IMG/VR virus record: IMGVR_UViG_651053023_000006
Length of the DNA: 19,487 nucleotides
Direction: 5' to 3' (one strand)
DNA from: a virus
Taxonomy: Duplodnaviria; Heunggongvirae; Uroviricota; Caudoviricetes
The notes beneath the pieces are model-generated. The model was not told where the DNA came from and did not search any database. It worked only from the letters and a program-made list of their open reading frames with translations. This document shows, piece by piece, positions 1 through 14,646 of this stretch. Numbering within the stretch: position 1 is the stretch's first letter; every line of letters begins with the position of its first letter. Both the position numbers and the translations under genes were made by a program.

Positions 1-1119
1 TCAAATAACCAACTTAACCCATTCCTGACCTCGAGTATCGTTATAGCGATCGGTGGTTGCCTGGACTTTATGTCCTAGTAATGTTTTTGTATCGATACCC
101 TGTGCACGGTACAGCCGTTCTGATAGAGAGCGTTGTTCATGAAATGTTGGCGGAGTTTTTCCTGCTGGTGGAATTATCCCAGCCAGATCCCGTGCTTTGG
201 CAAAGTAGTCGCTCAGGTTGTCTTTACTCATCGGCTTCGGTTGTTTCTGGTGCCGACTATGGATTAGATATGGACTTAATATTCTGTCTCGGCACCCATC
301 AATAACTTCTTTTAACGTTATCCCAATGGCATCACAGCGTAGTGTAAGCGGTAACGCCAGACGCATTCCGGTTTTTCCCTGGGTGATATGCAAATGTTCG
401 TTCCACACATCTGAAAAACGCATGTGGTAAATGTCATCACGGCGCTGACCAGTAACAATCGCAAGAAGCATTGCGTTACGGATAAAGTGTTTTTCTGGCG
501 TTGCGTTGTAAATTTTTTGCCAGTCTTCCAGGGTGAGTCTGGCTCTGGTTACTTTAGGGATCGGTTTACGGGTGGCCTCCGGAGGATTCCATCCAGGAGG
601 AACTTCCCCTGCATGCTGTGCTTCTTTATAAATATCAACCCATAATCCACGATTTACTCTCGCTGTGCTGACCATGTCTTTATCCAGCCACTCATCCAGT
701 ATTAATGCAAAGTCTCTTACTTCCAGTTCTTTCAATGGGTGGTTTCCCAGACGGGAAACCAGATATGCAGCCATTCTGGCTTTTTCTTTGTGAGTTGTAG
801 CTGCAATATCTCCATTTTTCAGTCGCGTGTCCTGTATTTTCAGATATCGATCAACCCATGCCTTTAATCTGATACCCCGACGCGTTGTTGCTGACGGACT
901 TTCATCAATTTTGCGCATGAAATATTCAGCCTCTGCTGCAGCTATTCGCTGATTGGCTGTGGAAGCGATTTTTTCTGCCTTACCTTTGTCTGTTCCGAGC
1001 CCGTGAAATTTTCCAGTCACAGGGTTTTTATACTGGTAGTAAACTCTGCCAGTTCTGCGATCAAATTTTTCGTAAAGTCCGGCTACGTCAGTGCTGTTTT
1101 TTCGTGGCCTCGGTGACAT
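1..1119 (-). CDS. int: Phage integrase, tyrosine recombinase (lambda Int family)
   Basis: 372-aa ORF with ATG at 1117-1119 and stop at 1-3. The C-terminal region (PPTFHEQRSLSERLY, LLGHK, RYNDTRGQEW) parallels the catalytic region of lambda Int as I remember it. Start overlaps the upstream xis-like ORF, as in lambda. Confidence 0.9.
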   Translation of the reverse strand: MSPRPRKNSTDVAGLYEKFDRRTGRVYYQYKNPVTGKFHGLGTDKGKAEKIASTANQRIAAAEAEYFMRKIDESPSATTRRGIRLKAWVDRYLKIQDTRLKNGDIAATTHKEKARMAAYLVSRLGNHPLKELEVRDFALILDEWLDKDMVSTARVNRGLWVDIYKEAQHAGEVPPGWNPPEATRKPIPKVTRARLTLEDWQKIYNATPEKHFIRNAMLLAIVTGQRRDDIYHMRFSDVWNEHLHITQGKTGMRLALPLTLRCDAIGITLKEVIDGCRDRILSPYLIHSRHQKQPKPMSKDNLSDYFAKARDLAGIIPPAGKTPPTFHEQRSLSERLYRAQGIDTKTLLGHKVQATTDRYNDTRGQEWVKLVI

Positions 1120-1357
1120 GAGTTAAAATCTCCTTCAGTGCATCATCATCGCCAGTATGAATTTCCGGCGCAATTCCTGTTTCACCAGGTCCAACAAATA
1201 CTGCTCGGCGATCTATCAGCCAACGCCCACGAATTTTTTGTGGTCTTGGAACGATGTATCCTAGTTTTCCGTATTTCACCAGGGTAGTGTTTGTTATTGG
1301 GAGACTGAACCGTTTTGGCTTCCACTCATCGAGCGTTATCAGGTACTGTTCGCTCAT
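1088..1357 (-). CDS. xis: Excisionase (Xis-like)
   Basis: Small ORF directly upstream of int and overlapping its start. The track start at 1366 is GTG; I prefer ATG at 1355-1357, which has GGAG about 9 nt upstream. N-terminus (YLITLDEW...) resembles lambda Xis (YLTLQEW...). Confidence 0.6.
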   Translation of the reverse strand: MSEQYLITLDEWKPKRFSLPITNTTLVKYGKLGYIVPRPQKIRGRWLIDRRAVFVGPGETGIAPEIHTGDDDALKEILTHVTEATKKQH

Positions 1358-1418
1358 GGCTATCACTCCGGAACGCGCCAGTTGCAGAATACCAACGACA
1401 ACTGGCGACGGTTGAACA

Positions 1419-3284
1419 TTAAAAATCAGCCTGACTCGGGATCAGTTTTTGCCAGATAGCTGAAACGTATTTTGCCTGGTAACGAGCGTCATCAAGTGCA
1501 TTATGGCGCTCACCTTCGAATGGAATAGCCGTTCTGGCATCGAAGTCTATGGCTTTCCCCAGCTCAACGATTGTGCGTACATCGCGATCGTTGTAGTAAC
1601 GCCACGGGCAGGGGATCCCCTGCCGTTCGTATGAACGGCGCAAAATCGTGTTGTCGAAGTTGGCTCCATTTCCCCAGACCTGAACAAAAAATTCACCGGA
1701 GTTTTCGTCGATAAATTCTCGCAATTGTAACAGTGCATCATCTAACGGGATTTCATCGGTCATAATGGCAGATTGCGCTTCGCGTGATTGCTTCAGCCAC
1801 CATTTAATGGTGTTCCGATCAATGACTCCGCCAGCAGTTTCCAGATCGATAGTCTTACTAAATTCCGGTCCCATATCTCCGGTTTGCGGATCGAAAAATA
1901 TTGCACCTATTGAGATAACCGGGGCATCAGGATTTTTTCCCATGGTTTCGAGGTCGATCATTAGATGGTCACACGTCCTGCTGGTGGATGTGATTTCGTG
2001 ATGACCGTTCATCTTAATTGAGTGATCTGCCGCCTCGCCAGTTTCATTATCGCTGGCGTGGTCCTGAGCGCTGCCAGCATTCTCCTTGTGTGGATGTTCA
2101 GCGCCTTCCATTTTCTCCGGATCGTTTTCCTGAACTTCAACCTGATTCTCTTCATCGAATGTTTCCTGGTATGTTGCGTCGCCCATCACCGCGCCACAAT
2201 CAGGGCAGTTGCCGCCACCGCTCTGACCGCAGGCGGTGCAGACTTTTTCCGCTTCCTGTTGCGCTACTGGCTCAGGTTGTTTTGTTTCCGGCTCGTTTTG
2301 TAACGCATTTGGGCTGTTTTGTTCCGCTTTCTGGTCGTTCTGTTCCGTTTCTTGCTGGTTCTGGTTCACAGAATCGCGGGTTTCAATCCCCTTCACCCAT
2401 TTCGGATCATTCGGGTCGCTAATCCCTGCAACAAATTCTCCGCGAGAGGCAGCAAGCAGTTCATTAGCGTCAGGCTGGCTGATATTGGCTGCCTGCATAA
2501 TTTTGTTTACTTCGTCAGCGGTAACTTTTACCGGCTCTGGTTGTGCGGTCGTGTCAGATGCACCAGTATTTTGTTGTGAGCCTGAGTATGTACCGTTTTT
2601 GCGGGCAAAATATTCTTCTTTCGTGATTTCAGTAGCCCCTGCAGCCAGCGCCTTATTCAGACCAGAAAGTTTGTTTGCACGACCATATTTTTCGCCATCC
2701 TTATCGGTGAAAAGGAAGTAGAACGGCCCCTCACGCTCTACAGATGGTTCAGTTTCCAGCGTGCTTTCATTTTTTTGGGTATCAGATACTTCAGTTTCCA
2801 CTGCATCAGTTTGTGCTGCTGACGGCTGGAGAATATCAGCAGCGTTCTGGTCTGTTTCTTCATCCTCAAACACGCCCTTTGTCGCCAGGTATTCAGTGAT
2901 GTATTTGTTCAGTGCTACGGGATCTTTGTGAATGTCGATCGGACGCTCACGGACAAGGCCAAAAATAGTCTGACGGTCGTAGCGGACGGCATCGGGTTGT
3001 TTGCGCATTGATGCGGAAATGCGCTTCCAGTCTTCGCGATCTTTGTCGATAACTTCATTGTTTCTGGCTAACCAGCAACGCGCGCCAGATTCGGTTTTAA
3101 ACGTTTTGCTTTTGGTATATGTCATCGCGGTGAACGTACCGTCCTGGTTGGGGAACACGCCGCATACCAGAGATTCGTTGTTGCCAAGATCGATAGTATC
3201 CATGCTGACCTCATTTCCCCTTAACGCCGGGGTAGCGGAACAAAAACCTGCTGCATAGTTATTAAAGTTGAACCCTGCCGTCAT
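1419..3284 (-). CDS. Phage exonuclease, C-terminal DnaQ-like DEDDh 3'-5' exonuclease domain with acidic N-terminal region and CxxC...CxxC zinc ribbon
   Basis: 621-aa ORF. C-terminal motifs read in the translation: IDLETMG (Exo I), NGANFD (Exo II), HNALDDA (Exo III). Zinc ribbon [16 protein letters not shown]. Start is ambiguous: ATG at 3282-3284, or ATG at 3201-3203 which has GAGG 7 nt upstream. Confidence 0.7.
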
Positions 3285-3374
3285 GTTCTTACGCCTCGGG
3301 CTGGCTACTTAACCCCTGACCACTGCCTGGTAACTCGAAGTATTGCCCTGCATTCTGTGGGGCGGGGTGGGTTG

Positions 3375-3425
3375 GTATTTTTAGTTTAATAAACATTAAA
3401 CTTAAGTCAAGTAAAAACTAAACCA
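3375..3425. promoter_or_regulatory. Candidate left operator region (OL-like) with inverted TAGTTTA / ACTAAAC motifs
   Basis: Sequence TAGTTTAATAAACATTAAACTTAAGTCAAGTAAAAACTAAACC. Its reverse complement shares ACTTGACTTAA and TTTATTAAAC-ACTAAA with the regulator-cro intergenic region at 4390-4430. Confidence 0.35.
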
Positions 3426-3494
3426 CGGGGCGTAACAAACACAACGCTTTTGATAAAGTCGTTGCGGTTGTTATGTTTCTATTGGTAGTGAAAG

Positions 3495-3773
3495 TTAGGG
3501 AAACTGGCGTCTTGCGTGGATCACGTTTACTACTTCAACGCTTGATGTTGTTACGCGGTATAGAATTATATAGTTAGGGTGGGCTACAATCTCACGCAAG
3601 CCAGGTACTCTGTCGCTTGGTGGGTATAAATACGGATGTTCGGATAACGGCAGCACACAACCCCTTAATCGCTGCCATAAGCGTTCAGCCGCATCTATGT
3701 CGAAACGAGCAATATAGCTAGTTATATCATCTAGGTCGGTATCTGCGCTTTCAAGCCATAACACGGGTAACAT
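3495..3773 (-). CDS. parE2: ParE-family type II toxin (ParE2-like)
   Basis: Track ORF trimmed to the internal ATG at 3771-3773, giving 92 aa. Typical ParE pattern (DLDDI...YRV...EVVNVIHARR). Start overlaps the stop of the upstream antitoxin (3775-3777). Confidence 0.75.
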   Translation of the reverse strand: MLPVLWLESADTDLDDITSYIARFDIDAAERLWQRLRGCVLPLSEHPYLYPPSDRVPGLREIVAHPNYIILYRVTTSSVEVVNVIHARRQFP

Positions 3774-3774
3774 T

Positions 3775-3966
3775 TTACTGCTTGCTCCGTTCCTTGCGCA
3801 TTTTAGCAAAGCGTTCTGCCATTCTGCGCTCAACTTCGTCATGGGGAATTGCTGGGCGCGGATCTGCAAGGCTCGTTGCTACTTTCGCACGCAGCCATTC
3901 GTTGTAACTGTTTTCTTGTTCAATGGTTTCAAATTCAGAAACCATTGGTGAAAGGGCTCTATTCAT
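3775..3966 (-). CDS. paaA2: Antitoxin of ParE toxin (PaaA2-like, 63 aa)
   Basis: ATG at 3964-3966 with AGGAGG-type RBS on the coding strand (GGAGGAAACATG). 63 aa (MNRALSPMVSEFETIEQENSYNEWLRAK...) immediately upstream of and coupled to the ParE gene. Size and sequence match my recollection of PaaA2 from the E. coli O157 paaR2-paaA2-parE2 module. Confidence 0.65.
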   Translation of the reverse strand: MNRALSPMVSEFETIEQENSYNEWLRAKVATSLADPRPAIPHDEVERRMAERFAKMRKERSKQ

Positions 3967-3986
3967 GTTTCCTCCGGTTTTATAAC

Positions 3987-4358
3987 TCAGGCGCGGCGGC
4001 ATTTTTGCGCCGCAATCCATCTCGCTATGAGATCTTCCATTGATTCTTTTTTCTGCTTTAACTCGCTGATTATCTGGCGTTGCTCATCCTCAGGGAAGGC
4101 TGAAAAAATCTGCAATAATTCCAGTTGATTAGACGTTAACCCTGCATGTGGTGGAGAAACTTCCGGTTGTTCTGCGTATTCCGCATCCAGATACCCTTCC
4201 GGCATCCCGTATGTTTGCTCTATTCTTCTGGCAGCCTTTTCTCCAAACGAGGCCCTCCCACTCATTAGTTGAGATAGGTAGCTCTTCTCTTTGGGTGGCA
4301 GAGTTTTATCTTTAAACCACTCCTTGAGACGTAAACGGCGAATTTCTTTTTTTTGCAT
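3987..4358 (-). CDS. paaR2: HTH transcriptional regulator in the prophage repressor (CI) position, PaaR2-like
   Basis: Track ORF starts at GTG 4421; I prefer ATG at 4356-4358 (123 aa). It lies divergent to the cro-like gene and is first in an operon with the antitoxin and toxin. There is no SD before the ATG, which would fit a leaderless mRNA. Confidence 0.6.
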   Translation of the reverse strand: MQKKEIRRLRLKEWFKDKTLPPKEKSYLSQLMSGRASFGEKAARRIEQTYGMPEGYLDAEYAEQPEVSPPHAGLTSNQLELLQIFSAFPEDEQRQIISELKQKKESMEDLIARWIAAQKCRRA

Positions 4359-4359
4359 G

Positions 4360-4455
4360 TGGTAATTATCTTTAGTAATCACTAAACAAGCAAATACTTG
4401 ACTTAATGGTTTATTAAACACTAAACTCGCAAAAAAACACTAAACCGAGGAAGGT
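4360..4455. promoter_or_regulatory. Divergent promoter/operator region (OR-like) between regulator and cro-like gene
   Basis: Three direct copies of CACTAAAC (4379-4386, 4419-4426, 4437-4444). Candidate rightward promoter TTGACT (4397-4402), 17-nt spacer, TAAACT. The cro-like gene has a strong RBS (GAGGAAGG). Confidence 0.4.
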
Positions 4456-4758
4456 ATGACATTAAAAGAGTTTATTAAATCATTGAGGGTTGGTGATGCT
4501 AAGAAATTCGCGGCCAGACTTGGTGTATCGCCATCTTACTTATCGCAAATGGCGTCTGGACGAGCAGCTATATCTCCAACCCGCGCCCTTATGATCGAAT
4601 CTGCGACGGAAGGCCAAGTAAGTAGGGCGGAGCTACGACCCCATGATTGGGAGCTTATTTGGCCTGAGTATGCGAGCGGCATTCGTTTGGGGCAAACACA
4701 TGTAGTTCATGCTGAAGGTGATTGTAGTGCATGCTTATCTGATGGAGTTGATTCATGA
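4456..4758 (+). CDS. Cro/YdaS-like HTH regulator
   Basis: 100-aa ORF, ATG at 4456, with an HTH segment (FAARLGVSPSYLSQMASGRAAISPTRAL). Divergent from the repressor-like gene. Its stop overlaps the next start as ATGA at 4755-4758. Confidence 0.7.
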   Translation: MTLKEFIKSLRVGDAKKFAARLGVSPSYLSQMASGRAAISPTRALMIESATEGQVSRAELRPHDWELIWPEYASGIRLGQTHVVHAEGDCSACLSDGVDS

Positions 4759-5179
4759 AAATCAAGCATGAACACATCCGCATGGCGATGAATGCCTGGG
4801 CGCGTCCTGATGGCGAAAAAGTTCCAGCAGCTGAAATAACCCGGGCTTATTTTGAGCTTGGTATGACGTTCCCAGAGCTATATGACGACAGGCATCCGGA
4901 AGCCCTGGCTCGCAATACTCAGAAAATTTTCCGCTGGGTGGAGAAAGACACCCCTGATGCGGTTAAAAAATTCAGGCGCTGTTACCGGCGATCGAAAAGG
5001 CAATGCCACCTCTGCTGGTGGCCCGAATGCGCAGCCACAGTTCAGCCTATTTTCGGGAGCTGGTGGAGATGCGGGAACGACTGGTGAGAGACGCTGATGA
5101 TTTTGTCGCAGTGGCGATCGCTGGTTTCAATCAGATGAATCGTGGTGGTCCGGCGGGAAATGCCGTGGTGATGCACTAA
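4755..5179 (+). pseudogene. cII/YdaT-like regulator gene interrupted by a frameshift at an A6 run (4965-4970)
   Basis: Frame 1 from ATG 4755 stops at 5087. The frame shifted by -1 after the A6 run reads cleanly to TAA at 5177-5179 (...IQALLPAIEKAMPPLLVARMRSHSSAYFRELVEMRERLVRDADDFVAVAIAGFNQMNRGGPAGNAVVMH). A single extra A would give one ORF of about 141 aa. Confidence 0.5.
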
Positions 5180-5202
5180 AAGCACGGTGTTCGGAGTTTT
5201 TT

Positions 5203-6150
5203 ATGAGCAGCAAGCTTCATGGTCTTGTCTGGGAAGGGTGTGCCTTCACCGGCATGATCTTATCCAGGGTGGCAGTTATGGCTCGCCTTGCAGATTACAG
5301 CAATGACGAAGGTGTGTCATGGCCTGCAGTGGAGACCATTCGTCGTCAGATTGGGGCAAAGAGTGAATCAACGGTTAAAGCTGCGATAGCAGAACTGGAA
5401 AAGAACGGCTGGCTGACGAAGGAGGAACGTAAGGTCGGTGGGCGTAATGAAAGCAATATCTACCGTCTTAATGTGGAAAAACTCGAAGCAGCAGCAGCGG
5501 CAGCGCGTGAGGCATATAAACCGAAAAGAAAAATTAGCCAGGCAAAAAATGACCCGTCAAATATTGACCCCTCAACGGTTGACCCGTCAAATTTTGATGG
5601 ATCAACCGTTGATAAAAAACAGCCGGTTAGGGGGGCGATGGTTGGCCCCGATCCGTCAGTATTAAAACCTGATCCGTCAGATAAAAGATCTTTTCGTCCG
5701 GACGCTTCGCAACCGGACCCGCAGACGGCTGAACAGGATTTTTTAACCCGACACCCTGACGCGGTTGTGTTCAGTGCGAAAAAACGCCAGTGGGGCAGCC
5801 AGGAGGATTTAGCGTGTGCGCAGTGGATCTGGGGACGAATCGTGAGTCTTTACGAGCAGGCTGCCAGCGATGATGGCGAAATCATGCGACCGAAAGAACC
5901 CAACTGGACTGCATGGGCCAATGATGTGCGCACAATGCGGATGCTGGATGGCAGAACTCACAGACAAATTTGCGAAATGTTTGGTCGGGTACAGCGGGAT
6001 CCATTCTGGGTAAAAAACGTCATGAGCCCGTCAAAGCTTCGCGAAAAATGGGATGAGCTGGTTATTCGTCTGGGGCGTTCGCCTGTACAGCGTTGCGTGA
6101 ATCACATTTCTGAACCGGACACCGAAATTCCGCCGGGATTCAGGGGGTAA
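5203..6150 (+). CDS. Replication initiator, lambda O-like, with iteron-encoded linker
   Basis: 315-aa ORF with GGAG RBS. N-terminal winged-helix-like segment. The central peptide repeats (DPSNIDPSTVDPSNFDGSTVD...PDPSVLKPDPSD) are encoded by DNA iterons. It is followed by a DnaC-like loader gene. Confidence 0.7.
   Translation: MSSKLHGLVWEGCAFTGMILSRVAVMARLADYSNDEGVSWPAVETIRRQIGAKSESTVKAAIAELEKNGWLTKEERKVGGRNESNIYRLNVEKLEAAAAAAREAYKPKRKISQAKNDPSNIDPSTVDPSNFDGSTVDKKQPVRGAMVGPDPSVLKPDPSDKRSFRPDASQPDPQTAEQDFLTRHPDAVVFSAKKRQWGSQEDLACAQWIWGRIVSLYEQAASDDGEIMRPKEPNWTAWANDVRTMRMLDGRTHRQICEMFGRVQRDPFWVKNVMSPSKLREKWDELVIRLGRSPVQRCVNHISEPDTEIPPGFRG
5548..5690. repeat. Iteron array inside the O-like gene (candidate ori)
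   Basis: Repeated TGACCCGTCAA-type units (ATGACCCGTCAAAT, TTGACCCCTCAAC, TTGACCCGTCAAAT, GGATCAACCGTTGAT, CGATCCGTCAGTA, TGATCCGTCAGAT), each with partial dyad symmetry, followed by an A/T-richer stretch. Confidence 0.5.
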
Positions 6151-6156
6151 CGAAGC

Positions 6157-6903
6157 ATGAAAAATATTGCGACAGGCGGTGTTCTTGAACGCATCCGTAA
6201 GCTGGCTCCGCAGCATGTAACCGCGCCATACCGAACAGTGGACGAGTGGCGCGAGTGGCAACTTGCAGAAGGCCAGAAGCGTTGCGAGGAGATCAACCGC
6301 CAGAATCGTCAGTTGCGGGTGGAAAAAATTCTGAATCGCTCCGGCATCCAGCCGTTGCACCGCAAGTGCTCGTTTGCGAATTACCAGGTGCAGAATGACG
6401 GCCAGCGATACGCGTTGAGCCAGGCGAAATCCATCGCCGATGAACTGATGACCGGATGCACAAATTTCGCATTCAGCGGAAAACCTGGTACCGGGAAAAA
6501 CCACTTAGCGGCGGCTATCGGGAATCGCCTGCTGAAAGATGGCCAGACAGTGATTGTGGTTACCGTGGCTGATGTCATGAGTGCTCTACACGCCAGCTAT
6601 GACGACGGGCAATCAGGCGAAAAATTTTTGCGGGAACTGTGCGAAGTGGATCTGCTGGTTCTTGATGAAATTGGTATTCAGCGCGAGACGAAAAACGAGC
6701 AGGTGGTACTGCACCAGATTGTTGATCGCCGGACAGCGTCGATGCGCAGCGTGGGGATGCTGACAAACCTGAACTATGAGGCCATGAAAACATTGCTCGG
6801 CGAGCGGATTATGGATCGCATGACCATGAACGGCGGGCGCTGGGTGAATTTTAACTGGGAGAGCTGGCGCCCGAATGTTGGTCAGCCAGGTATTGAGAAG
6901 TAA
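6157..6903 (+). CDS. DnaC-like helicase loader (phage P / YdaV-like AAA+ ATPase)
   Basis: 248 aa. Walker [14 protein letters not shown] and Walker [19 protein letters not shown]. Immediately downstream of the O-like gene. Confidence 0.85.
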
Positions 6904-6925
6904 TTTTTACCGGGAGGAAATTTTA

Positions 6926-7696
6926 ATGGAGACCGTTTTTGACGCACTGAAAGCGATGGGAAAAGCCACGTCGGTAGAGCTGGCTGCGCGACTTGATATC
7001 AGTCGTGAAGAAGTACTGAACGAGCTGTGGGAACTGAAAAAGGCTGGCTTCGTTGATAAAAGCGTATACACCTGGCGTGTGGCTGGCGAAGGTGAATCAG
7101 GGGTAGCCGAAGAGCAGCCAGCACAATCTGAAGTACAGGATGTGCTAACCAGGGAGGTCGAACGAAAAGTTACCGCTGACATGATGATTGAGTTTATCGG
7201 TCAGGAGGGAGCTAAAACGTGTGAGGAACTGGCGGGTAAGTTCGGTGTCAGCACTCGCAAGGTTGCTTCCACGCTGGCGGTAGTAACCGCAACGGGGCGG
7301 CTGGCACGCGTAAACCAGAACGGTAAATTTCGCTACTGCATACCGGGCGATAATTTACCAGCAGAGCCGAAAGCTGCATTGGTAGCGGAAACTGATGGTA
7401 AAGCCTTTCCTCAGCCAGCAAGTGTTGCGTTACCAGTACAGGAAGCTGCAACACAGGAAGATATTAAAACAGAAACTGTGGCGGACATTGTGCAGTCGCT
7501 GCCATCGTTCACTGAAACACGAGCTGATGGCCTGATTTTACCATCGCTGCATATGGCAAACCGCGAACTGCGCCGGGCGAAAAGTCATGCCCAGAAGTGG
7601 GAGCGAGTTTGCGCCGCGCTGCGGGAGCTGAACAAGCACCGGGATATTGTCCGACAGATTGTCGATTCCTCCAGTCGTATTGTGCCGGAAAAGTGA
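6926..7696 (+). CDS. Hypothetical phage protein with two winged-helix-like segments
   Basis: Track ORF trimmed to ATG 6926, which has a GGGAGGA RBS. Two similar segments ([30 protein letters not shown] and [30 protein letters not shown]). Confidence 0.55.
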
Positions 7697-7712
7697 TTCC
7701 TGGGGAGGGCTT

Positions 7713-8168
7713 ATGGCAAAAGTATTTACACAGGAAGAGCGAGAAAAAATTAAAGGGCAGGTTGTTGAGCTGGTACGCCAGAGCGGGCGCGAGACGTTAC
7801 GGCAACTGGAAGCGAAAACTGGTGCGACAAGATATCTGATGAGTGTTATCGCCAGAGAGCTGGTTGCCAGTGGCGATGTATATAACTCTGGCTACGGGTT
7901 ATTCCCGTCTGAACAGGCTCGTAAGGACTGGCAAAACGCCCGCAAAAAACTCTCAAGGGCAAATCTGAAGAAACCATCTGTGGTTGATCCGGACCTTATC
8001 TGGTCATTACCAGACGGAGAAATGCGTCGCTACGATAGGCGCCTGAATATAATCTGTCGCGAGTGCCGGAAGAGCGAAGCTATGCAGCGTGTACTGGCAT
8101 TTTACCAGAATGGTTTTCGAGAGACATTCGGTGAACAGGTTGTGCATGAGGGAAATCATGGCGCTTAG
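7713..8168 (+). CDS. Hypothetical phage protein (N-terminal HTH-like segment)
   Basis: Track ORF trimmed to ATG 7713, which has a GGGGAGGG RBS. 151 aa. No catalytic motif recognised. Confidence 0.55.
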   Translation: MAKVFTQEEREKIKGQVVELVRQSGRETLRQLEAKTGATRYLMSVIARELVASGDVYNSGYGLFPSEQARKDWQNARKKLSRANLKKPSVVDPDLIWSLPDGEMRRYDRRLNIICRECRKSEAMQRVLAFYQNGFRETFGEQVVHEGNHGA

Positions 8169-8278
8169 GCAATTGTGTAGACGCGTTGACGGTCGAAAGC
8201 ATAGGAGGGTTGATTGATCGTTCTAGTTATGCTGTCAGAGCGAAAGCGCAGGAACTGGGTATCAATAGGATGTTAAGA

Positions 8279-8287
8279 GGGGGGGGG
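8279..8287. repeat. G9 homopolymer tract separating two ORF fragments
   Basis: Nine consecutive G read directly in the sequence. The upstream fragment ends ...INRMLRGGGL and stops at TAA 8291-8293. The downstream frame encodes YNQSKKHPQSDIELVRKLHQCGVPRRDIAVKREMSLGMINQYVYFDRRAHEV and stops at 8445-8447. Confidence 0.9.
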
Positions 8288-8595
8288 TTATAACCAATCA
8301 AAAAAACATCCGCAAAGCGATATTGAGCTAGTGCGGAAGCTTCATCAGTGTGGAGTTCCCCGCCGTGATATCGCTGTAAAACGCGAAATGTCCTTGGGCA
8401 TGATTAATCAGTACGTTTATTTCGACAGGAGAGCGCATGAAGTTTGACATCTAGACAACTGGGGGAGCGCTGAAAACGTTCTTAATTGATGTTGGATTCG
8501 CTTTACATACTGAACTGTTTGGCTGAAAGACACGGTAGTATCACCAATCAAGGTGCTTTTGATAAACGCTTGTGTGTTTGTTTTTTAATCCATTG

Positions 8596-8624
8596 TTGAC
8601 AACTAGGTTAGTTTTCCATATCAT
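8596..8624 (+). promoter_or_regulatory. Candidate sigma70 promoter for the ParA-like gene
   Basis: TTGACA (8596-8601), 17-nt spacer, TATCAT (8619-8624), about 30 nt upstream of ATG 8655. Confidence 0.5.
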
Positions 8625-8654
8625 CAATAAAAGTGTAAAACTAATGGTGGCGAT

Positions 8655-9701
8655 ATGACTAGTGAATCAAATGTTAATGCTCTGATAGAGCGTCAATTCG
8701 AAGTTGCTGACGGTAATGTAAGAAGTCTTAATTTGCCGAAATATGATAAATATACAGTATGTAATTTACGGGGAGGCATTGGTAAGACATCTTTAACTTT
8801 TAATCTGTCATATTTGGCGGATAACGCATTAATCGTGGATACGTGCCCGCAAGGAAATTTATCATATTTTTTTGACAATAATTATGCATCTTCGTCTAGC
8901 ACAACTGCAAATGACCTCTTAATGCCTTATTTTGTTCCAGGGCTTGGATTTGCAACGCGTGCTGCAAAGCTAGTATCATCAACTAATGCTTGGTTTGCGG
9001 GCAAGAATAACTATTTTATTCAATCTGATAGTCAACTTTATCTTCTACCTACGCAAATGGCGAATGCTCTGGCTCAAGCCAGAACAATTTCTGGGGCTAC
9101 TCAGCAGGTTGTTATTGATACAATTCTTTTTTCTCTGAAGAAAGAAATAGCCAGAGAAATGGTTGAAACTGGTACTACAAAAGCGTTAATTGATACATCA
9201 CCTTTTTTCTCTGGAGCGACGCATTTATCTTGGCATGCAACAGATGCTTTAATAGTTCCAGTGAGGACAGATCAGCAATCGATTAATTCATTAAGATTAC
9301 TTATTGATACTCTGACTAAACCAACATCAGAATTTAGAAAGATAATGCCGTCTGATGGCCATACACCAAAAATTCAGATGGTGGTTATTACCCATTGCGG
9401 ATGGTCAACAGTGGCAGGAGCAAGGAATAAACCAAATCAACAGACAAAAATGTACATCGAAGCTGTAAGAGAGGTAATTCGACAAAATATTAGTAATTTT
9501 ACAACAGATGATCCTAATAATCACATTGTGATTCTTGATGATTTTCTGGGTAGTGGCAGAATGTCAAGTGCTAAGTCTAAACCATTAGAGTTGTTAAATC
9601 CAGGAGATGCAATGACTGTGAATAGAGTTAGGACATCCGTGAATTTATCTGTTAACAAAATAAAAAATGAATTAAAGTTCATTCACAACTCCATATGGTA
9701 A
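8655..9701 (+). CDS. ParA/MinD-superfamily P-loop ATPase with atypical deviant Walker A (Arg replaces the signature Lys)
   Basis: 348 aa. Motifs: YTVCNLRGGIGKTSLTFNLSYL (deviant Walker A, R for K), LIVDTCPQGNLS (compare ParA LLIDLDPQGN), ALIDTSPFFSG ... DALIVPVRTDQQSINSL (Walker B region). About 30-aa N-terminal and about 60-aa C-terminal extensions. Region is visibly AT-rich. Confidence 0.8.
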   Translation: MTSESNVNALIERQFEVADGNVRSLNLPKYDKYTVCNLRGGIGKTSLTFNLSYLADNALIVDTCPQGNLSYFFDNNYASSSSTTANDLLMPYFVPGLGFATRAAKLVSSTNAWFAGKNNYFIQSDSQLYLLPTQMANALAQARTISGATQQVVIDTILFSLKKEIAREMVETGTTKALIDTSPFFSGATHLSWHATDALIVPVRTDQQSINSLRLLIDTLTKPTSEFRKIMPSDGHTPKIQMVVITHCGWSTVAGARNKPNQQTKMYIEAVREVIRQNISNFTTDDPNNHIVILDDFLGSGRMSSAKSKPLELLNPGDAMTVNRVRTSVNLSVNKIKNELKFIHNSIW

Positions 9702-9858
9702 ATGACATTTTATTTGAATAATCTGGATTGATAATTATTGTTACATTAATTGTTATTAATTCTAAATAATCCTATCGTTCTTCAGGATGAGATAATTTAT
9801 ATTTATTTGTGTTGTGATTTTTTGAATTTATTTAGGTTTATGAACTGTTTTAGATGAA

Positions 9859-9978
9859 ATGAATCATGAATACGAAATTGTTGCGGTACTGATAACGAGG
9901 AAAGACCTCTGCGAGGTACGAATCCGAACCGGCCAGACGGAGGTCGCTGTCTTCACAGCTTACGAACCTGAGGAGTAA
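9859..9978 (+). pseudogene. hok/gef-family type I toxin remnant, 5'-truncated
   Basis: 39-aa frame MNHEYEIVAVLITRKDLCEVRIRTGQTEVAVFTAYEPEE. The C-terminal 28 residues match the conserved Hok/Gef/RelF tail (LTRKxLCEx[RH]xRxGxxEVAxFxAYE). The N-terminal transmembrane helix is missing and no hydrophobic stretch is encoded upstream in any frame. GC-rich hairpins and a terminator follow, as in hok mRNA 3' regions. Confidence 0.6.
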
Positions 9979-10046
9979 GAGACCAGGCGAGGGAGAAATC
10001 CCTCGCCACCTCTGATGTGTCAGGCATCCTCAACGCACCCGCACTT

Positions 10047-10069
10047 AACCCGCTTCGGCGGGTTTTTTA
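10047..10069 (+). terminator. Rho-independent terminator (hok-remnant 3' end)
   Basis: ACCCGC-TTCG-GCGGGT hairpin (10048-10063) followed by T6. A strong GGCGAGGGA-GAAA-TCCCTCGCC hairpin lies upstream at 9986-10007. Confidence 0.7.
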
Positions 10070-10116
10070 TTGGTTGACAAAATTATGAATATGCACCAAT
10101 ATCTTGGTTGACAAAA
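10070..10116 (+). promoter_or_regulatory. Candidate promoter/operator with two direct TTGGTTGACAAAA repeats
   Basis: TTGGTTGACAAAA at 10070-10082 and 10104-10116. Each contains TTGACA. Located between the terminator and the start of the downstream two-gene operon. Confidence 0.4.
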
Positions 10117-10151
10117 GTCGTTTTTTGCACGGATTAGGCGGAGAAGTGTCT

Positions 10152-10745
10152 ATGCAGAACCATCCATTCCCTTGGGAGTTCTTTCCTGAGTTAACAGAGG
10201 AGCGTTTAACCATTATAGCTGAGGAGTTGCTCAGGATACAGGATATTACTCATGAGTTATTGTCATCGCCCTATGATGATAATTACACTCGTGGTGGTTG
10301 TACATTTGGGCGTCAGCGGCAGGCGTTGCTACAAATGTGCGTACGAAAGACATATGACTGGTTAAGACTACTTAATCCTGGCATGGATCTTACGTTTTCA
10401 ATTGGGAATGTCCCTATTCGTTTCTTTACTGATGACGCAGATAACCCCAAGAAACGCGGTTTTTTCAAAAGAAATGATGCTGATCGACTCTTTGAGTCAG
10501 AGGAGACTACTCCAACTATGCATCGCTTTGTGGTTGAAAAGCCTGAATTTGAAGGCGAGGGTGGTAGAGTCATTTTTAATGGCTATAACGTGTTTGGTGA
10601 GATCGTGTCAACTTGGACATATGGTGCGGACCGTGTTGTTATGCTGAACTCTGTCGATGATGTACCTCCAGCACCGGTACCTATCGAACTAGAACCTATC
10701 AGTGCGTCTAAGACTGAGAAGGAAAAGAAACAAAATAGCAAATAG
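10152..10745 (+). CDS. Hypothetical protein (197 aa), first gene of a two-gene operon
   Basis: Track ORF starts at TTG 10104; I prefer ATG 10152 with GGAG about 9 nt upstream. AT-rich codon usage. No family motif recognised. Stop TAG at 10743-10745 is 10 nt before the next start. Confidence 0.65.
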   Translation: MQNHPFPWEFFPELTEERLTIIAEELLRIQDITHELLSSPYDDNYTRGGCTFGRQRQALLQMCVRKTYDWLRLLNPGMDLTFSIGNVPIRFFTDDADNPKKRGFFKRNDADRLFESEETTPTMHRFVVEKPEFEGEGGRVIFNGYNVFGEIVSTWTYGADRVVMLNSVDDVPPAPVPIELEPISASKTEKEKKQNSK

Positions 10746-10755
10746 TGGGTGAAAT

Positions 10756-11877
10756 GTGTTTAACGGTACTAATTTAAGACTTGCTCGTCTGTATCACGAG
10801 CTATCTCTGGAGCAGGTTGCTGAGAAGGTTGAAAAAACACGCCAGTATGTACAGCGACTGGAGTCTGGTTCAGCTACTCCATCCCCAGAGCTTATAAATA
10901 AATTAGCCGAGGTTTTGCGCGTGAAGCCCGCCTTTTTCGAAGGGCAGGAACATTCTCCTGTTAATGAAGAGATTGTACATTTTCGTAAACGCGCCTCGAC
11001 AAGGATGTCAACGAAGCTATCAACACTCGCTAAGGCTGAGTTTTATCGTCGTTTTATTGATGTATTTGAAGATAACCTTAATTTGTCACCTGTTCGATTT
11101 CCTGAATTTCGTGTCCATACACAAGAAGATATCGAGCGAGCGGCAGAAAAATGTCGTATTGAGTGGGGCTTAGGCTTTGGCCCAATTGAAAATATGACTC
11201 GCCTTGCCGAGAAACTTGGGGCGTTTGTTACTTCATTTGACTCCGTTTCGGATGAAGTAGATGCACTGTCTGTTCCTCTACGAAGGCCTTTTATTGTTCG
11301 AAATACAGCTAAAAATTCACCTTGTAGGCAACGCTTTGATATTGCTCATGAGGTTGCCCATTTGATTCTTCATGAAGGAATTTCTACTGGGGATAGATTA
11401 ACTGAATCCCAGGCAAACCGTTTTGCCTCTGCTCTGTTGCTTCCCAGAACGTCGATGGCGAAATATTTTCCAAGACCTGTGGGGGGGAGGATAAATTGGC
11501 AGGGACTAAGCCAATTTAAGTTGACATGGAAAGTAAGTAAGGCTGCCATTGTTTACAGGGCTCATCAATTAGGACTTTTGACTGATGAGCAGTACAGAAC
11601 TGCATTTATGGGGTTGAAACGGAAAGGGGAAGCTATTGATGAAAAAGAAGATTATCTAATCCCTCATGAGCGTCCTGAGTTATTCCGTCGGGCTTTATCG
11701 TTTTTATTTGAAGAGTTAGGATACGACCCACAGCGTATAGCTGATGAAATGGATATAGAAGTGGACATTTTTTATGAGTTAGTAGGAGATGATCTTCCTG
11801 CGGTTCATGAACTGCCAGGAAGTGGTGATGTTGTTTCACTACAATCTTACCGAACTCTTAGAGGCAAAATTCACTAG
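10756..11877 (+). CDS. XRE-family HTH fused to ImmA/IrrE-type zinc metallopeptidase (COG2856-like)
   Basis: GTG start at 10756. N-terminal HTH (LRLARLYHELSLEQVAEKVEKTRQYVQRLESG...ELINKLAEVL). Central HEXXH motif (FDIAHEVAHLILHE) in the arrangement typical of ImmA/IrrE peptidases. 373 aa. Confidence 0.75.
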   Translation: MFNGTNLRLARLYHELSLEQVAEKVEKTRQYVQRLESGSATPSPELINKLAEVLRVKPAFFEGQEHSPVNEEIVHFRKRASTRMSTKLSTLAKAEFYRRFIDVFEDNLNLSPVRFPEFRVHTQEDIERAAEKCRIEWGLGFGPIENMTRLAEKLGAFVTSFDSVSDEVDALSVPLRRPFIVRNTAKNSPCRQRFDIAHEVAHLILHEGISTGDRLTESQANRFASALLLPRTSMAKYFPRPVGGRINWQGLSQFKLTWKVSKAAIVYRAHQLGLLTDEQYRTAFMGLKRKGEAIDEKEDYLIPHERPELFRRALSFLFEELGYDPQRIADEMDIEVDIFYELVGDDLPAVHELPGSGDVVSLQSYRTLRGKIH

Positions 11878-11881
11878 GCAT

Positions 11882-11904
11882 AACCCGCTTCGGCGGGTTT
11901 TTTG
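11882..11904 (+). terminator. Rho-independent terminator, identical hairpin to 10047-10069
   Basis: ACCCGC-TTCG-GCGGGT followed by T6, starting 5 nt after the stop at 11875-11877. Confidence 0.7.
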
Positions 11905-11978
11905 TTTTACGTATTCTGGTTTACAATCTACAGGCTAGCCTGAACAACTGGCACCTGCTGCGCCAGCAGAGAAAACCG

Positions 11979-12251
11979 ATGGCGCACAATACCAAACATC
12001 ACAATTCTGATACCGACCTTGCCAGCTGGCACGGGCGGCGTTCTCATACATTCAAATATGACTGGTACCAGCATGCCCCATGCACTGAAGAACAGGCCGA
12101 ATGGCTGATTCAGAACTACCGCAGGCGTGGGTACGACTTTCAGAAAGACCTCAGCCCTGACTTCCGACACTGGATAATTTCTGTCAGGCTCCCTTATTCC
12201 GAACGCCCACCGCGTCCGTCCCGCACATTCCAGCAACGCATCTGGAGGTAA
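11979..12251 (+). CDS. Hypothetical small protein (Rem-like by position)
   Basis: 90-aa ORF, ATG at 11979. Its stop TAA (12249-12251) sits next to the GGAGG RBS and GTG start of the downstream DUF968 gene. Gene order resembles rem-ydfU-Q in Qin-type prophages. Confidence 0.45.
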   Translation: MAHNTKHHNSDTDLASWHGRRSHTFKYDWYQHAPCTEEQAEWLIQNYRRRGYDFQKDLSPDFRHWIISVRLPYSERPPRPSRTFQQRIWR

Positions 12252-12252
12252 C

Positions 12253-13308
12253 GTGCGGGTATTACTTCGACCTGTTCTGGTGCCGGAACTTGGGGTGGTT
12301 ATCGTTAAGCCAGGTCGTGAATCCATGCAGGTATTCCATAACGGCAGAGTGCTGGTTGAACCGGAGCCAAAAAGCATGCGCGGTCTGCCGTCCGGGGTCG
12401 TTCCTGCCGTTCGCCAGCCGCTGGCGGAAGACAAATCTCTGCTGCCATTTTTCAGCGATGAGCGGGTGATTCGTGCTGCCGGCGGCGCTGGTGCACTGTC
12501 TGACTGGCTCCTGCGTCATGTTAAATCCTGCCAGTGGCCACACGGCGATTATCATCACAGCGAAACCGTTATTCACCGTTATGGTACCGGCGCAATGGTG
12601 TTGTGCTGGCACTGCGACAACCAGCTGCGTGACCAGACATCCGAATCACTCGAGCAACTTGCTCATCAAAACCTGTCAGCATGGATGATTGACGTCATAC
12701 ACCATGCAATGAATGGCACGCAGGAGCGGGAATTATCGCTGGCTGAATTATCTTGGTGGGCAACCATAAATAACGTAGCGGACGCACTACCGGAGACGGT
12801 ATTACGTCGTTCGCTGGGATTGCGCGCGGAAAAAATTCGCTCAGTATACCGCGAGAGCGACATCGTGCCGGGAGAGCAGACCGCCACCAGCATACTGAAG
12901 CAGCGCACAAAAAATCTTGCGCCGCTGCCTCACGCCCACCAGCAAAACCCGCCACAGGAAAAGACAGTGGTCAGCATTGCCGTTGATCCGGAGTCACCGG
13001 CTCAGTATCTCCAGCGCCAGAAACCACAACGGGAAGAGATGCCTGTATACACGCGCTGGGTAAAAACGCAGAAATGCATGACGTGCGGTAATCAGGCAGA
13101 TGATCCGCATCACATCATTGGTCATGGACTGGGAGGGATGGGAACAAAGGCTGACGATTTGTTTGTTATTCCATTGTGCCGTAAATGTCATAACGAACTG
13201 CACACCGGGGTAAAAGATTTTGAAGAAAAACACGGCAGCCAGCTGTTGTTGCTGATTCGTTTTTTAATGCACGCGAGAAATTCGGGTGTCCTGAAGTGGA
13301 AAGCATAA
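12253..13308 (+). CDS. DUF968 (YdfU-like) prophage protein with C-terminal HNH/zinc-finger-like motif
   Basis: 351 aa, GTG start with GGAGG upstream. C-terminal CMTCGN...HHIIGHG...CRKCHNELH cysteine/histidine cluster. Stop TAA is adjacent to the rusA ATG. Confidence 0.65.
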   Translation: MRVLLRPVLVPELGVVIVKPGRESMQVFHNGRVLVEPEPKSMRGLPSGVVPAVRQPLAEDKSLLPFFSDERVIRAAGGAGALSDWLLRHVKSCQWPHGDYHHSETVIHRYGTGAMVLCWHCDNQLRDQTSESLEQLAHQNLSAWMIDVIHHAMNGTQERELSLAELSWWATINNVADALPETVLRRSLGLRAEKIRSVYRESDIVPGEQTATSILKQRTKNLAPLPHAHQQNPPQEKTVVSIAVDPESPAQYLQRQKPQREEMPVYTRWVKTQKCMTCGNQADDPHHIIGHGLGGMGTKADDLFVIPLCRKCHNELHTGVKDFEEKHGSQLLLLIRFLMHARNSGVLKWKA

Positions 13309-13674
13309 ATGACCGAACGCATAGAATTTGTTTTGCCTTACCCGCCAACGGTGAACACCTACTGGCGACGTCGTGGCAGCACATATTTTGTATCAAAAGC
13401 CGGTGAGCGTTATCGCCGTGATGTGGCGCTAATTGTTCGCCAGCAGCGGCTGAAATTAAACCTGTCCGGACGGCTGGCGATAAAGGTGATTGCAGAGCCA
13501 CCGGATAAACGTCGTCGTGACCTGGACAATATCCTGAAAGCACCACTGGATGCGCTGACGCATGCCGGACTACTCATAGACGACGAGCAGCTTGATGAAA
13601 TCAATATTGTGCGCGGTCAGCTCGTTCCTGGTGGGCGGCTGGGGATAAAAATCACAGAATTGGAGTGCGCATGA
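13309..13674 (+). CDS. rusA: RusA-family Holliday junction resolvase
   Basis: 121 aa. PYPPTVNTYW and RRRDLDN motifs match the RusA pattern (PWPPSNNRYY, RRRDLDN). Stop overlaps the Q-like start as ATGA. Confidence 0.85.
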   Translation: MTERIEFVLPYPPTVNTYWRRRGSTYFVSKAGERYRRDVALIVRQQRLKLNLSGRLAIKVIAEPPDKRRRDLDNILKAPLDALTHAGLLIDDEQLDEINIVRGQLVPGGRLGIKITELECA

Positions 13675-14360
13675 ATAACCAGTATTTACAGTTTGTGCGC
13701 GAGCAGCTCATTATCGCCACCGCTGATTTGAGTGGGGCAACAAAAGGTCAGCTTGAAGCCTGGCAGGAGAATGCCATGTTTGATACAGGGCGTTACAGGC
13801 GTAAAAAAATCCGGTACCGCGATGAAGTGACTGGAAAAATGATAACGCGGGATAATCCACCAATCCCGGGAAAACAATCACTGGCGAAAGGCTCATCAAT
13901 TGCCCTGGTCAGCCCGGTTGAGTTTTCGACATCATCATGGCGGCGGGCTGTGCTGTCTCTTGAAGAGCATCATAAAGCCTGGTTGTTGTGGTGTTACGGC
14001 GGAAACATTTGCTGGGAGCATCAGATCGCGATAACACAGTGGGCGTGGAACGAATTTAATACTCAATCCGGTACCAGAAAAATTGCAGGGAAAACGCAGG
14101 AACGCCTGAAAAAATTAATCTGGCTGGCGGCGCAGGCAGTAAAAGCAGAACTTTTTGGTGGGGAAGGTTATGAATACCAGGAGCTGGCATTACTGGCGGG
14201 AGTGACAACTAAAAACTGGTCCAAAACATTTACTCGTCACTGGGTTGCAATGAAACACATTTTTTACCGACTGGATAGTGGGGCTTTATTGTTTGTAATG
14301 AGAACGCGTTCAAAACAAAAGGCGGCATTTTCAAAGCAAAGTGTTGCAAAAGTAGATTGA
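13671..14360 (+). CDS. Q-like late antiterminator (candidate)
   Basis: 229-aa ORF (ATG 13671, GGAG RBS) in the canonical position after rusA and before a promoter, tRNA and terminator. The family call rests mainly on position and size. Confidence 0.5.
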   Translation: MNNQYLQFVREQLIIATADLSGATKGQLEAWQENAMFDTGRYRRKKIRYRDEVTGKMITRDNPPIPGKQSLAKGSSIALVSPVEFSTSSWRRAVLSLEEHHKAWLLWCYGGNICWEHQIAITQWAWNEFNTQSGTRKIAGKTQERLKKLIWLAAQAVKAELFGGEGYEYQELALLAGVTTKNWSKTFTRHWVAMKHIFYRLDSGALLFVMRTRSKQKAAFSKQSVAKVD

Positions 14361-14570: not shown

Positions 14571-14646
14571 GGCCCTTTAGCTCAGTGGTGAGAGCGAGCG
14601 ACTCATAATCGCTTGGTCGTTGGTTCAAACCCAACAGGGGCCACCA
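14571..14646 (+). tRNA. tRNA with CAU anticodon, Ile2 (lysidine) type by similarity to ileX; tRNA-Met not formally excluded
   Basis: 76 nt including CCA. Acceptor stem GGCCCTT/AGGGGCC. Anticodon stem AGCGA/TCGCT with loop CTCATAA (U33, CAT, A37). T arm GTTGG-TTCAAAC-CCAAC. Closely resembles E. coli tRNA-Ile2 as I remember it. Confidence 0.9.

Follow-up and report, generated by a model that had tools for sequence, protein, structure and literature searches.

The region 3377-4455 of the viral DNA analysed here (hereafter the window, a single stretch of 19,487 bp) is very probably the immunity switch of a CP-933P-type lambdoid prophage, in which the repressor PaaR2, the regulator YdaS and the palindromes of a right (OR) and a left (OL) operator region make up a bistable scheme. 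The operator sets are already known and not new: they are the published right and left operators of the switch formed by PaaR2 and the Cro-like YdaS, studied in CP-933P (Sp12) of E. coli O157:H7 by EMSA, DNase I footprinting, 5' RACE and gfp fusions (Jurenas et al. 2021, mBio; PMC8630535). The first-pass annotation had proposed OR-like and OL-like sets serving one repressor, which agrees with the footprints and with the repression of PL933P published for the same DNA. That proposal is thus correct, though not novel; since the switch was already dissected experimentally, the finding mainly amounts to published operators being recovered by a sequence-only reading. The switch decides the silence of a prophage widespread in E. 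coli and also sets the expression of the embedded ParE toxin module, the module being found in the viable phage Evi and in about 590 of the 5,426 complete genomes. This copy contributes a natural variant, in which the toxic dicF-dicB-ydfD cassette is deleted and PL directly drives the fused ydfA-exonuclease ORF, followed by xis and int.

The identity with the published system was established by primer mapping. Twenty of the 24 EDL933-derived primers of PMC8630535 map to the window without any mismatch, including all those used for PR, PRM, PL, PRE, EMSA and RACE; the EMSA primers FL1 and FL2 are exact matches, as are both PL primers (3377-3398 and 3474-3494). The published fragments correspond, with 0 mismatches, to 4358-4455 and 3377-3494, and the cloned PR fragment to 4358-4431. 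Outside the primers, the comparison of about 27 nt in OR and 59 nt in the PL fragment relied only on a Shiga toxin-producing (STEC) relative, L004, which has an EDL933-type left flank and stands in for EDL933 beside the published primers; OR and OL are identical between this relative and the window. The primer R-CP933P-Sal has no match in the window, which marks a mosaic boundary near 3214: left of about this position, the window carries ydfA whereas the EDL933-type flank has a different, unannotated ORF.

The paaR2-ydaS intergenic region (4359-4455) is 97 bp long, as published, and it is this region that was footprinted by both proteins, over about 78 bp by PaaR2 and over 27 and 32 bp by YdaS (PMC8630535). 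The same study gave GTTTAGTAA as the consensus of the OR repeats, reported a 45- to 100-fold repression of the promoters by PaaR2 and YdaS, and described, beyond parE2, PL933P with OL1-3, whose -35 and -10 are identical to those of PR and which both proteins repress about 100-fold. The evidence on OL came from a reporter assay, and the exact sequences contacted by PaaR2 and YdaS were left open, direct and inverted repeats being both possible (PMC8630535). Binding by the two proteins and repression of PR, PRM and PL should hold for the window as they do for EDL933 DNA (PMC8630535), given that binding, the PR and PRM starts and the repression of all three promoters were demonstrated on identical published DNA. 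The features of the region are listed in Table 1.

Table 1. Genes, promoters, operator sites and other elements of the switch and its surroundings, in window coordinates.
Feature	Position	Strand	Basis
In-frame YdfA-exonuclease fusion, first ORF after PL	1419..3203	-	Pfam DUF1391 and Rv2179c-like exonuclease domain
PL (PL933P)	3383..3410	-	Promoter scan: TTGACT 3410-3405, 16-nt spacer, TAAACT 3388-3383
OL palindrome, GTTTAATAAACATTAAAC	3384..3401		12/14 match; over PL spacer and -10; inside PL933P reporter fragment 3377-3494
OL palindrome, GTCAAGTAAAAACTAAAC	3406..3423		12/14 match; over and upstream of PL -35
Stable hairpin between parE2 stop and PL	3433..3473	-	Fold z-score -3.2; 2/200 shuffles fold as well
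parE2, toxin, 92 aa	3495..3773	-	Pfam ParE_toxin; PDB 5CW7 ParE2, E 7e-60, residues 1-92
paaA2, antitoxin, 63 aa	3775..3966	-	Pfam PF21217 PaaA2, E 1e-19
paaR2, CI-like repressor, 123 aa, N-terminal HTH domain, no peptidase domain	3987..4358	-	PHROG 5736, transcriptional regulator
PRM (PRM933P)	4358..4393	-	Hexamers read from sequence
OR palindrome proximal to paaR2 (IR1 of PMC8630535), CTTTAGTAATCACTAAAC	4370..4387		13/14 match to GTTTAGT-N4-ACTAAAC
PR (PR933P), drives ydaS-ydaT	4398..4427	+	Promoter scan: TTGACT 4398-4403, 18-nt spacer, TAAACT 4422-4427
OR palindrome distal to paaR2 (IR3), GTTTATTAAACACTAAAC	4409..4426		13/14 match
IR4, lone right half-site (third CACTAAAC, 4438-4445)	4428..4445		Left half 1/7, right half 7/7
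ydaS, Cro-like regulator, 100 aa	4456..4758	+	Pfam YdaS_toxin, HTH_3; PDB 8C7K, E 7e-63, residues 1-100
YdaT high-affinity site OM, TTGATTCATGAAAATCAA	4748..4765		Exact match to TTGATT-N6-AATCAA
ydaT (CII analogue), frameshifted	4755..5087	+	One A lost in A7 run near 4964

PaaR2 is identical over residues 1-65 to the protein of PDB 7NKV/8C3K ('Phage repressor protein CI') and starts with MQKKE as in PMC8630535; it is these 65 residues that its identity to the published protein covers. A Pfam search with the 123-aa protein gave no domain match, so that the S24 autopeptidase of lambda-type repressors was not detected, in line with the published protein, which has no peptidase motif and does not respond to mitomycin C (PMC8630535). 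The predicted mass of PaaR2-His6 is 15,195 Da for the allele of the window and 15,123 Da for the E66G allele of the STEC relative, compared to the reported 15,081 Da; this mismatch indicates that the window and published alleles differ somewhere outside residues 1-65, for instance by a change such as E66G. The paaA2-parE2 pair follows paaR2 immediately and is encoded on the same strand. On the other side, the PDB entry matched by YdaS is titled 'Phage antirepressor protein Cro'.

It had been noticed that CACTAAAC occurs three times between the repressor gene and ydaS. The repeat is real, with all copies within 66 bp, and a search of the whole window finds exactly three (4380-4387, 4419-4426 and 4438-4445) where 0.58 would be expected; the second copy had been placed correctly, the first and third one base too low. 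CACTAAAC is the sole 8-mer of the window with at least three non-overlapping copies inside 70 bp, and any such cluster appears in no more than 3 of 300 windows shuffled by dinucleotides and 4 of 5000 shuffled versions of the intergenic region (97 bp, 31% GC). The inverted pair reported left of the toxin gene is also present (TAGTTTA at 3382-3388, ACTAAAC at 3417-3423), as are the strings common to both regions in opposite orientation, at 3384-3423 on the left: TACTTGACTTAA (4395-4406) is 100% complementary to 3402-3413, and TTTATTAAAC (4410-4419) is complementary to 3384-3393.

The conserved unit is an 18-bp palindrome, GTTTAGT-N4-ACTAAAC, of which CACTAAAC is the right half-site. With up to 3 mismatches, this palindrome is found in the whole window only at 3384 and 3406 (OL) and at 4370 and 4409 (OR), that is 4 matches against 0.64 expected, a number reached in none of 200 shuffles. 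The first two copies of CACTAAAC are the right halves of the proximal and distal OR palindromes, TTTATTAAAC is the left half of the distal one, and the third copy stands alone as a half-site, which the comparison of loci shows to be particular to this lineage; the lack of conservation of the left half of IR2 and IR4 was already noted (PMC8630535). ACTTGACTTAA, another shared string, is mainly the common -35 hexamer TTGACT and its flanks, that is a promoter element and not an operator.

The palindromes are arranged on divergent promoters, PR and PRM being both overlapped by operators and a distal set lying on PL, which is the lambda-type organization. The proximal OR palindrome fills the spacer of PRM and lies within the published PaaR2/YdaS footprint probe, the distal one overlaps PR at its spacer and -10, and the IR4 half-site covers the predicted PR start region. 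PRM is composed of a -35 TTGCTT (reverse complement of 4388-4393), a 17-nt spacer and a -10 GATAAT (reverse complement of 4365-4370); its +1 is the A of the paaR2 ATG (4358), so that the mRNA is leaderless, 5' RACE together with the N-terminal protein sequence (MQKKE) having placed the start of paaR2 transcription at the start codon, and 5' RACE having also mapped that of ydaS (PMC8630535). The hexamers of PR and PL are identical in the promoter scan (TTGACT/TAAACT), and PL is predicted to start near 3376.

Four close relatives, one of them the viable phage Evi, show no variation in OR or OL, which makes covariation uninformative among them; the comparison was based instead on 27 loci of many genera, whose PaaR2 homologues have 44-76% identity. 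Two palindromes lie upstream of the repressor gene in 24 of these loci, mostly at -29 and -67, and one to three more lie downstream in 25 of them, from +445 to +2293; altogether 91 matches are counted, against 8.4 in shuffles. The counterpart of the proximal OR palindrome is at the same place in most loci, -29 from the repressor ATG, that of the distal one is at -67/-68, and OL pairs are spaced by 22-24 bp, as compared to 22 bp between the starts of the two OL palindromes of the window. The OR-plus-OL layout recurs in 24-26 of the 27 loci.

These data bear on three other explanations of the repeats. The shared strings could be nothing but duplicated sigma-70 elements (-35 TTGACT/-10 TAAACT), the repeats being recognised by no common repressor; it is true that TACTTGACTTAA, the longest shared word, contains the -35, that CACTAAAC overlaps the PR -10 TAAACT and that PR and PL have the same hexamers. 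However, the palindrome at 4370-4387 sits in the PRM spacer, outside any -35 or -10 of PR or PL, the positions of the palindromes are conserved in 24-26 of the 27 diverged loci, and the footprints and 45- to 100-fold repression are published (PMC8630535), all of which makes this explanation extremely unlikely. That the repeats would instead be operators for autoregulation of the toxin-antitoxin (TA) pair by the PaaA2-ParE2 complex is hardly credible. They do flank a type II pair, and such pairs usually autoregulate, but the 63-aa PaaA2 matches the PaaA2 'stability determinant' family only and has no DNA-binding domain (see also PMC8630535), and OR and OL are also retained at homologous loci that lack TA genes altogether.

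In the third explanation, the recognition unit would be a head-to-tail direct repeat along which the proteins array on one face of the DNA, formed either by the three CACTAAAC copies, whose starts are 39 and 19 bp apart, or by the pseudo-symmetric OR1-OR3 of the paper (about 24 nt; 4371-4394, 4410-4433), the 24-nt copies being 83% identical; PMC8630535 leaves both readings open. Yet the third CACTAAAC half-site is found in 0 of the 27 homologous loci, the extension past the palindrome is likewise absent in 27 of 27, and both palindromes are kept; the OL sites are palindromic; and the better and poorer halves of the distal OR palindrome are swapped between E. coli and the homologues, as expected for a symmetric site. 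We consider direct repeats very improbable as the recognition unit, and rejected them, like TA autoregulation sites, on the evidence from the homologous loci, OL and PaaA2.

With the palindromes taken as the operators, the switch very probably works as follows. PaaR2 is the CI-like repressor, with the paaA2-parE2 TA pair behind it on the same transcript, and YdaS is the Cro analogue, both binding 18-bp palindromes of the GTTTAGT-N4-ACTAAAC type. In OR, these would be the site in the spacer of the leaderless PRM (4370-4387), the one over the PR spacer and -10 (4409-4426) and the half-site over the PR start (4438-4445); in OL, about 1 kb to the left and beyond parE2, 3384-3401 and 3406-3423 would cover PL. 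At a low PaaR2 level, PR and PL are repressed and PRM is stimulated, and at a high level PRM is shut off too; YdaS binds in the opposite order to PaaR2, resulting in a bistable switch. Which repeat each protein contacts, looping between OL and OR by octameric PaaR2 and the start site of PL are points of this scheme that we infer.

PL had also been said to read straight into the exonuclease gene, with no N-like gene in between. This is literally the case here, as the result of a 2.35-kb deletion by which dicF, dicB and ydfD were lost and ydfA became joined to the exonuclease gene. In the fusion ORF, YdfA (DUF1391; about residues 1-49) is joined to residues 277-823 of an 823-aa prophage exonuclease, and PHROGs 751 and 2082 match residues 1-49 and 48-594, respectively, the latter over profile positions 277-823 of 823; alignment to two relatives (L001 and L003) places the junction at 3055-3063. 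Intact relatives have ydfA, a 121-aa ORF, DicF, dicB and ydfD between PL and the exonuclease gene, with no N-like gene annotated among them. In the window, neither an N antiterminator gene nor nutL was found directly after PL, the ydfA (DUF1391) fusion being the first ORF. The 173-nt PL leader matches no Rfam family, even at E up to 5, and a put- or nut-like RNA in it was considered and dropped, as its fold is no better than that of shuffles (z +1.17). In this copy, transcription from PL would thus run through the 173-nt leader into the ydfA-exonuclease fusion, xis and int. Upstream of PL, the hairpin at 3433-3473 may be the end or a stabiliser of the paaR2 operon transcript; a terminator scan called no leftward terminator between parE2 and PL, this hairpin included.

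Compared to CP-933P of EDL933 (PMC8630535), the window has the same genes in the same order, the same 97-bp intergenic region and an identical PaaR2 DNA-binding domain; it differs by E66 in the PaaR2 linker, instead of G66 in the STEC allele, by the frameshifted ydaT and by the 2.35-kb deletion downstream of PL. With lambda CI/Cro, it shares the divergent repressor and cro genes, operators over PR and PRM, a second set on the leftward promoter beyond the repressor operon, a leaderless repressor mRNA, stimulation of PRM by low-dose repressor and accessory genes in the position of rexAB. Unlike lambda, PaaR2 belongs to an unrelated fold family without a RecA-cleavable peptidase domain, the operators are 18-bp palindromes (two full and additional degenerate ones at OR, two at OL) instead of three 17-bp sites of another sequence, OL and OR are about 1.0 kb apart instead of 2.3 kb, and PL is followed by no N gene or nut site. 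The Qin prophage, with DicA/DicC and the dicBp-ydfABC-dicF-dicB operon (Ragunathan et al. 2023; PMC10448788), resembles the intact relatives in its leftward operon (ydfA, DicF sRNA, dicB, ydfD) and in the action of its immunity repressor at the PL-equivalent promoter, but has the DicA repressor and other operators, whereas the window has the dicF-dicB-ydfD cassette deleted. The Rac system (RacR/YdaS/YdaT) also has a Cro-like YdaS and a CII-like YdaT opposite the repressor gene; however, YdaS and YdaT of CP-933P share only 26% and 31% identity with their Rac counterparts (PMC8630535), and Rac has no TA pair and a repressor, RacR, that is unrelated to PaaR2.

One possibility, which we hold to be somewhat more probable than its contrary, is that phage repressors with a PaaR2-type N-terminal domain form a broad family with GTTTAGT-N4-ACTAAAC as its common operator code. 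This family may be characterized by palindromes near -29 and -67 relative to the start of the repressor gene and by one to three further copies on the leftward promoter, and may span Enterobacterales and some Burkholderiales. Some distant PaaR2 homologues carry a CI-like form of about 210 aa, and the C-terminal domain may be interchangeable between the short PaaR2 type and this longer one, the latter apparently with an S24 peptidase; the interval between repressor and OL may be a variable cargo slot, of which paaA2-parE2 is just one occupant. We did not find such a family-wide operator picture in the literature searched on this switch; it extends a known system and is not a new kind. If true, many heterologous prophages would be co-immune or cross-regulating.

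Finally, on the rightward side, the OM site defined in PMC9986795 is present at the ydaS-ydaT border, and ydaT is truncated after residue 72 by a 1-nt deletion, the intact gene ending at 5180. This deletion may be genuine or may stem from a sequencing error in the homopolymer; with the frameshift, this copy may lack an active CII-like branch of the circuit.

The region is the paaR2-paaA2-parE2 / ydaS-ydaT immunity region of cryptic prophage CP-933P, and its switch system is already known and not new. The module is widespread: among 5,426 complete E. coli genomes, about 590 contain at least 80% of window 3200-4800, and it is also present, at 98.7% identity, in the viable phage Evi.

Genes, promoters and published fragments placed on the window
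Feature	Position	Strand	Basis
YdfA::exonuclease(277-823), in-frame ORF	1419-3203	-	product of deletion
Published PL reporter fragment	3377-3494		placed by primers
PL	TTGACT 3410-3405, 16 nt, TAAACT 3388-3383	-	promoter scan
parE2	3495-3773	-	ParE_toxin; PDB 5CW7, E 7e-60
paaA2	3775-3966	-	Pfam PaaA2
paaR2, 123-aa regulator	3987-4358	-	residues 1-65 identical to PDB 7NKV/8C3K 'Phage repressor protein CI'
Published PR/PRM reporter fragment	4358-4431		placed by primers
Published EMSA probe	4359-4455		placed by primers
PRM	TTGCTT (reverse complement of 4388-4393), 17 nt, GATAAT (reverse complement of 4365-4370)	-	read from sequence
PR	TTGACT 4398-4403, 18 nt, TAAACT 4422-4427	+	promoter scan
ydaS	4456-4758	+	PDB 8C7K 'Cro', E 7e-63
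ydaT	from 4755	+	YdaT_toxin

Repeats are present above chance expectation at both the right operator set (OR, around the paaR2-ydaS intergenic region) and the left one (OL, beyond parE2). CACTAAAC has only three copies in the 19.5-kb window, all at OR (4380-4387, 4419-4426 and 4438-4445; 0.58 expected), and is its sole 8-mer with three non-overlapping copies inside 70 bp; shuffling produces such a cluster 3 times in 300 for the window and 4 times in 5000 for the AT-rich 97-bp intergenic region. The first-pass annotation had counted these copies correctly between the regulator and the cro-like gene, but had placed the first and third one base too low. The inverted pair that it described left of the toxin is found at 3382-3388 (TAGTTTA) and 3417-3423 (ACTAAAC), as are the two strings common to both regions in opposite orientation, TACTTGACTTAA (4395-4406 vs 3402-3413, 100% complementary) and TTTATTAAAC (4410-4419 and 3384-3393).

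When the window is searched for the palindrome GTTTAGT-N4-ACTAAAC, with up to three mismatches tolerated, only four matches are obtained, at 4370-4387, 4409-4426, 3384-3401 and 3406-3423 (0.64 expected; four reached in 0/200 shuffles). CACTAAAC is the right half of both OR palindromes, its third copy being a lone half-site (right half 7/7, left half 1/7), and TTTATTAAAC forms the left half of two palindromes, the distal one at OR and the -10-proximal one at OL. ACTTGACTTAA is mostly the -35 common to PR and PL, plus flanks. The centres of OR and OL are about 1.0 kb apart.

The proposal that these are OR-like and OL-like operator sets for one repressor is supported by published experiments. The 97-bp intergenic fragment is shifted by PaaR2 and by YdaS; protection from DNase I covers about 78 bp of it with PaaR2 and 27 + 32 bp with YdaS (Jurenas et al., 2021; PMC8630535). 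The protected region contains 18-bp inverted repeats IR1-IR4 with half-site consensus GTTTAGTAA, the left half not being conserved in IR2 and IR4, as well as pseudo-symmetric 'operators' OR1-3 (PMC8630535). PR and PRM starts were mapped by 5' RACE, with the PRM +1 at the paaR2 ATG (window 4358) and a leaderless paaR2 mRNA; beyond parE2, PL933P has the same -35/-10 as PR933P, bears operators OL1-3 and is repressed about 100-fold by PaaR2 and YdaS (PMC8630535). Twenty of the 24 EDL933-derived primers of that study match the window without mismatch, including every promoter, EMSA and RACE primer, and L004, a STEC relative whose left flank is of the EDL933 type, does not differ from the window anywhere in OR or in 3377-3423. 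The EMSA, footprinting and 5' RACE suggested as checks have therefore already been done on this sequence, and they support the proposed reading.

A species-representative genome scan yielded 27 loci with a PaaR2 homologue (44-76% identity; in Xenorhabdus, Photorhabdus, Arsenophonus, Yersinia, Erwinia, Enterobacter, Raoultella, Morganella, Massilia, Mycoavidus and others). Two palindromes lie upstream of the repressor gene in 24/27 loci, mostly at -29 and -67 (-29 and -68 in the window), and one to three more lie downstream of the repressor operon in 25/27, at +445 to +2293 and, when multiple, mostly spaced by 22-24 bp. They total 91, against 8.4 in shuffles, and the back-to-back -35 block AAGCAAATACTTGAC is conserved too. 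A third half-site past the distal OR palindrome is found in none of the 27 loci; the copy at 4438-4445 is lineage-specific. These comparative data point to the palindromes as the unit that is conserved. The repressor-to-OL DNA ranges from nothing to unrelated ORFs, which fits paaA2-parE2 being cargo in the rexAB position, as discussed previously (PMC8630535).

In the distal OR palindrome (4409-4426), the better and poorer half-sites are swapped between E. coli and the homologues (e.g. L019 2434-2451): GTTTATTAAACACTAAAC stands in E. coli where other loci have GTTTAGTGTTTAATAAAC on the same strand, with the -10 TAAACT in both. In six loci (L019, L020, L023, L026, L028 and L029; repressor gene at 2501 onwards, 2152 in L020), the PaaR2 N-terminal domain belongs to homologues of 209-222 aa, whose C-terminal half looks, by eye, like a CI/LexA-type S24 peptidase. 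As the same palindromes are found there at OR and OL, the C-terminal domains that accompany the DNA-binding domain and its operators appear to be interchangeable.

Leftward transcription from PL was proposed to read straight into the exonuclease gene without an N-like gene. This is literally true in the window, though secondary. The ETEC4090 prophage (L003, adjoining potC) matches window 1-3063 at 99.8% and 3055-9421 at 99.7%, and its 3652-6000 is missing, a 2.35-kb deletion whose junction (3055-3063) shows 9 bp of microhomology. The first 275 codons (5' third) of the 823-aa exonuclease gene, ydfD, dicB, DicF (Rfam match, L003 5123-5174), a 121-aa ORF and the ydfA stop codon are lost. The junction is found in 0/5,426 complete E. 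coli genomes and in one IMG/VR contig (UViG_2531839662_000017, L032), matching window 1-14360 at 99.9%. Since relatives lacking the deletion carry DicF, dicB, ydfD and ydfA, their PL operon is like the Qin dicBF operon (PMC10448788); they likewise have no annotated N-like gene. A put-like RNA, looked for in the 173-nt PL leader, was unsupported. A stable hairpin (3433-3473, minus strand; z -3.2) lies in the stretch from the parE2 stop codon to the PL -35. It is not followed by a clean U-tract and was not called in the terminator scan; the paaR2-paaA2-parE2 transcript may be terminated or stabilised by it, cf. t_imm of lambda.

On the right, the YdaT site OM (TTGATT-N6-AATCAA; PMC9986795) lies at 4748-4765. 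In ydaT, the gene for the CII analogue, an A7 run (4959-4964) is one A short, and the resulting frameshift truncates the product after residue 72; A7 and an intact YdaT of 141 aa are kept in the window's closest relatives, L003 and L032. The missing A may reflect either a genuine inactivation or a sequencing error in the homopolymer.

A mosaic boundary lies at about 3214, just upstream of ydfA, leftward of which the EDL933-type, Evi and L004 flanks differ from the window. Window 3200-3378, to about the PL start, is common to phages with unrelated immunity regions, which places the exchange of the immunity cassette between about 3378 and the ydaT region. Elsewhere, the prophage contains a tRNA-Met (CAT) gene (14571-14646, plus strand; ARAGORN and Rfam), 9884-10042 shares 95.6% identity with the hokD (type I toxin) region of another closely related prophage (L001), and a GG insertion relative to L003 (8279-8280) is also present in L032.
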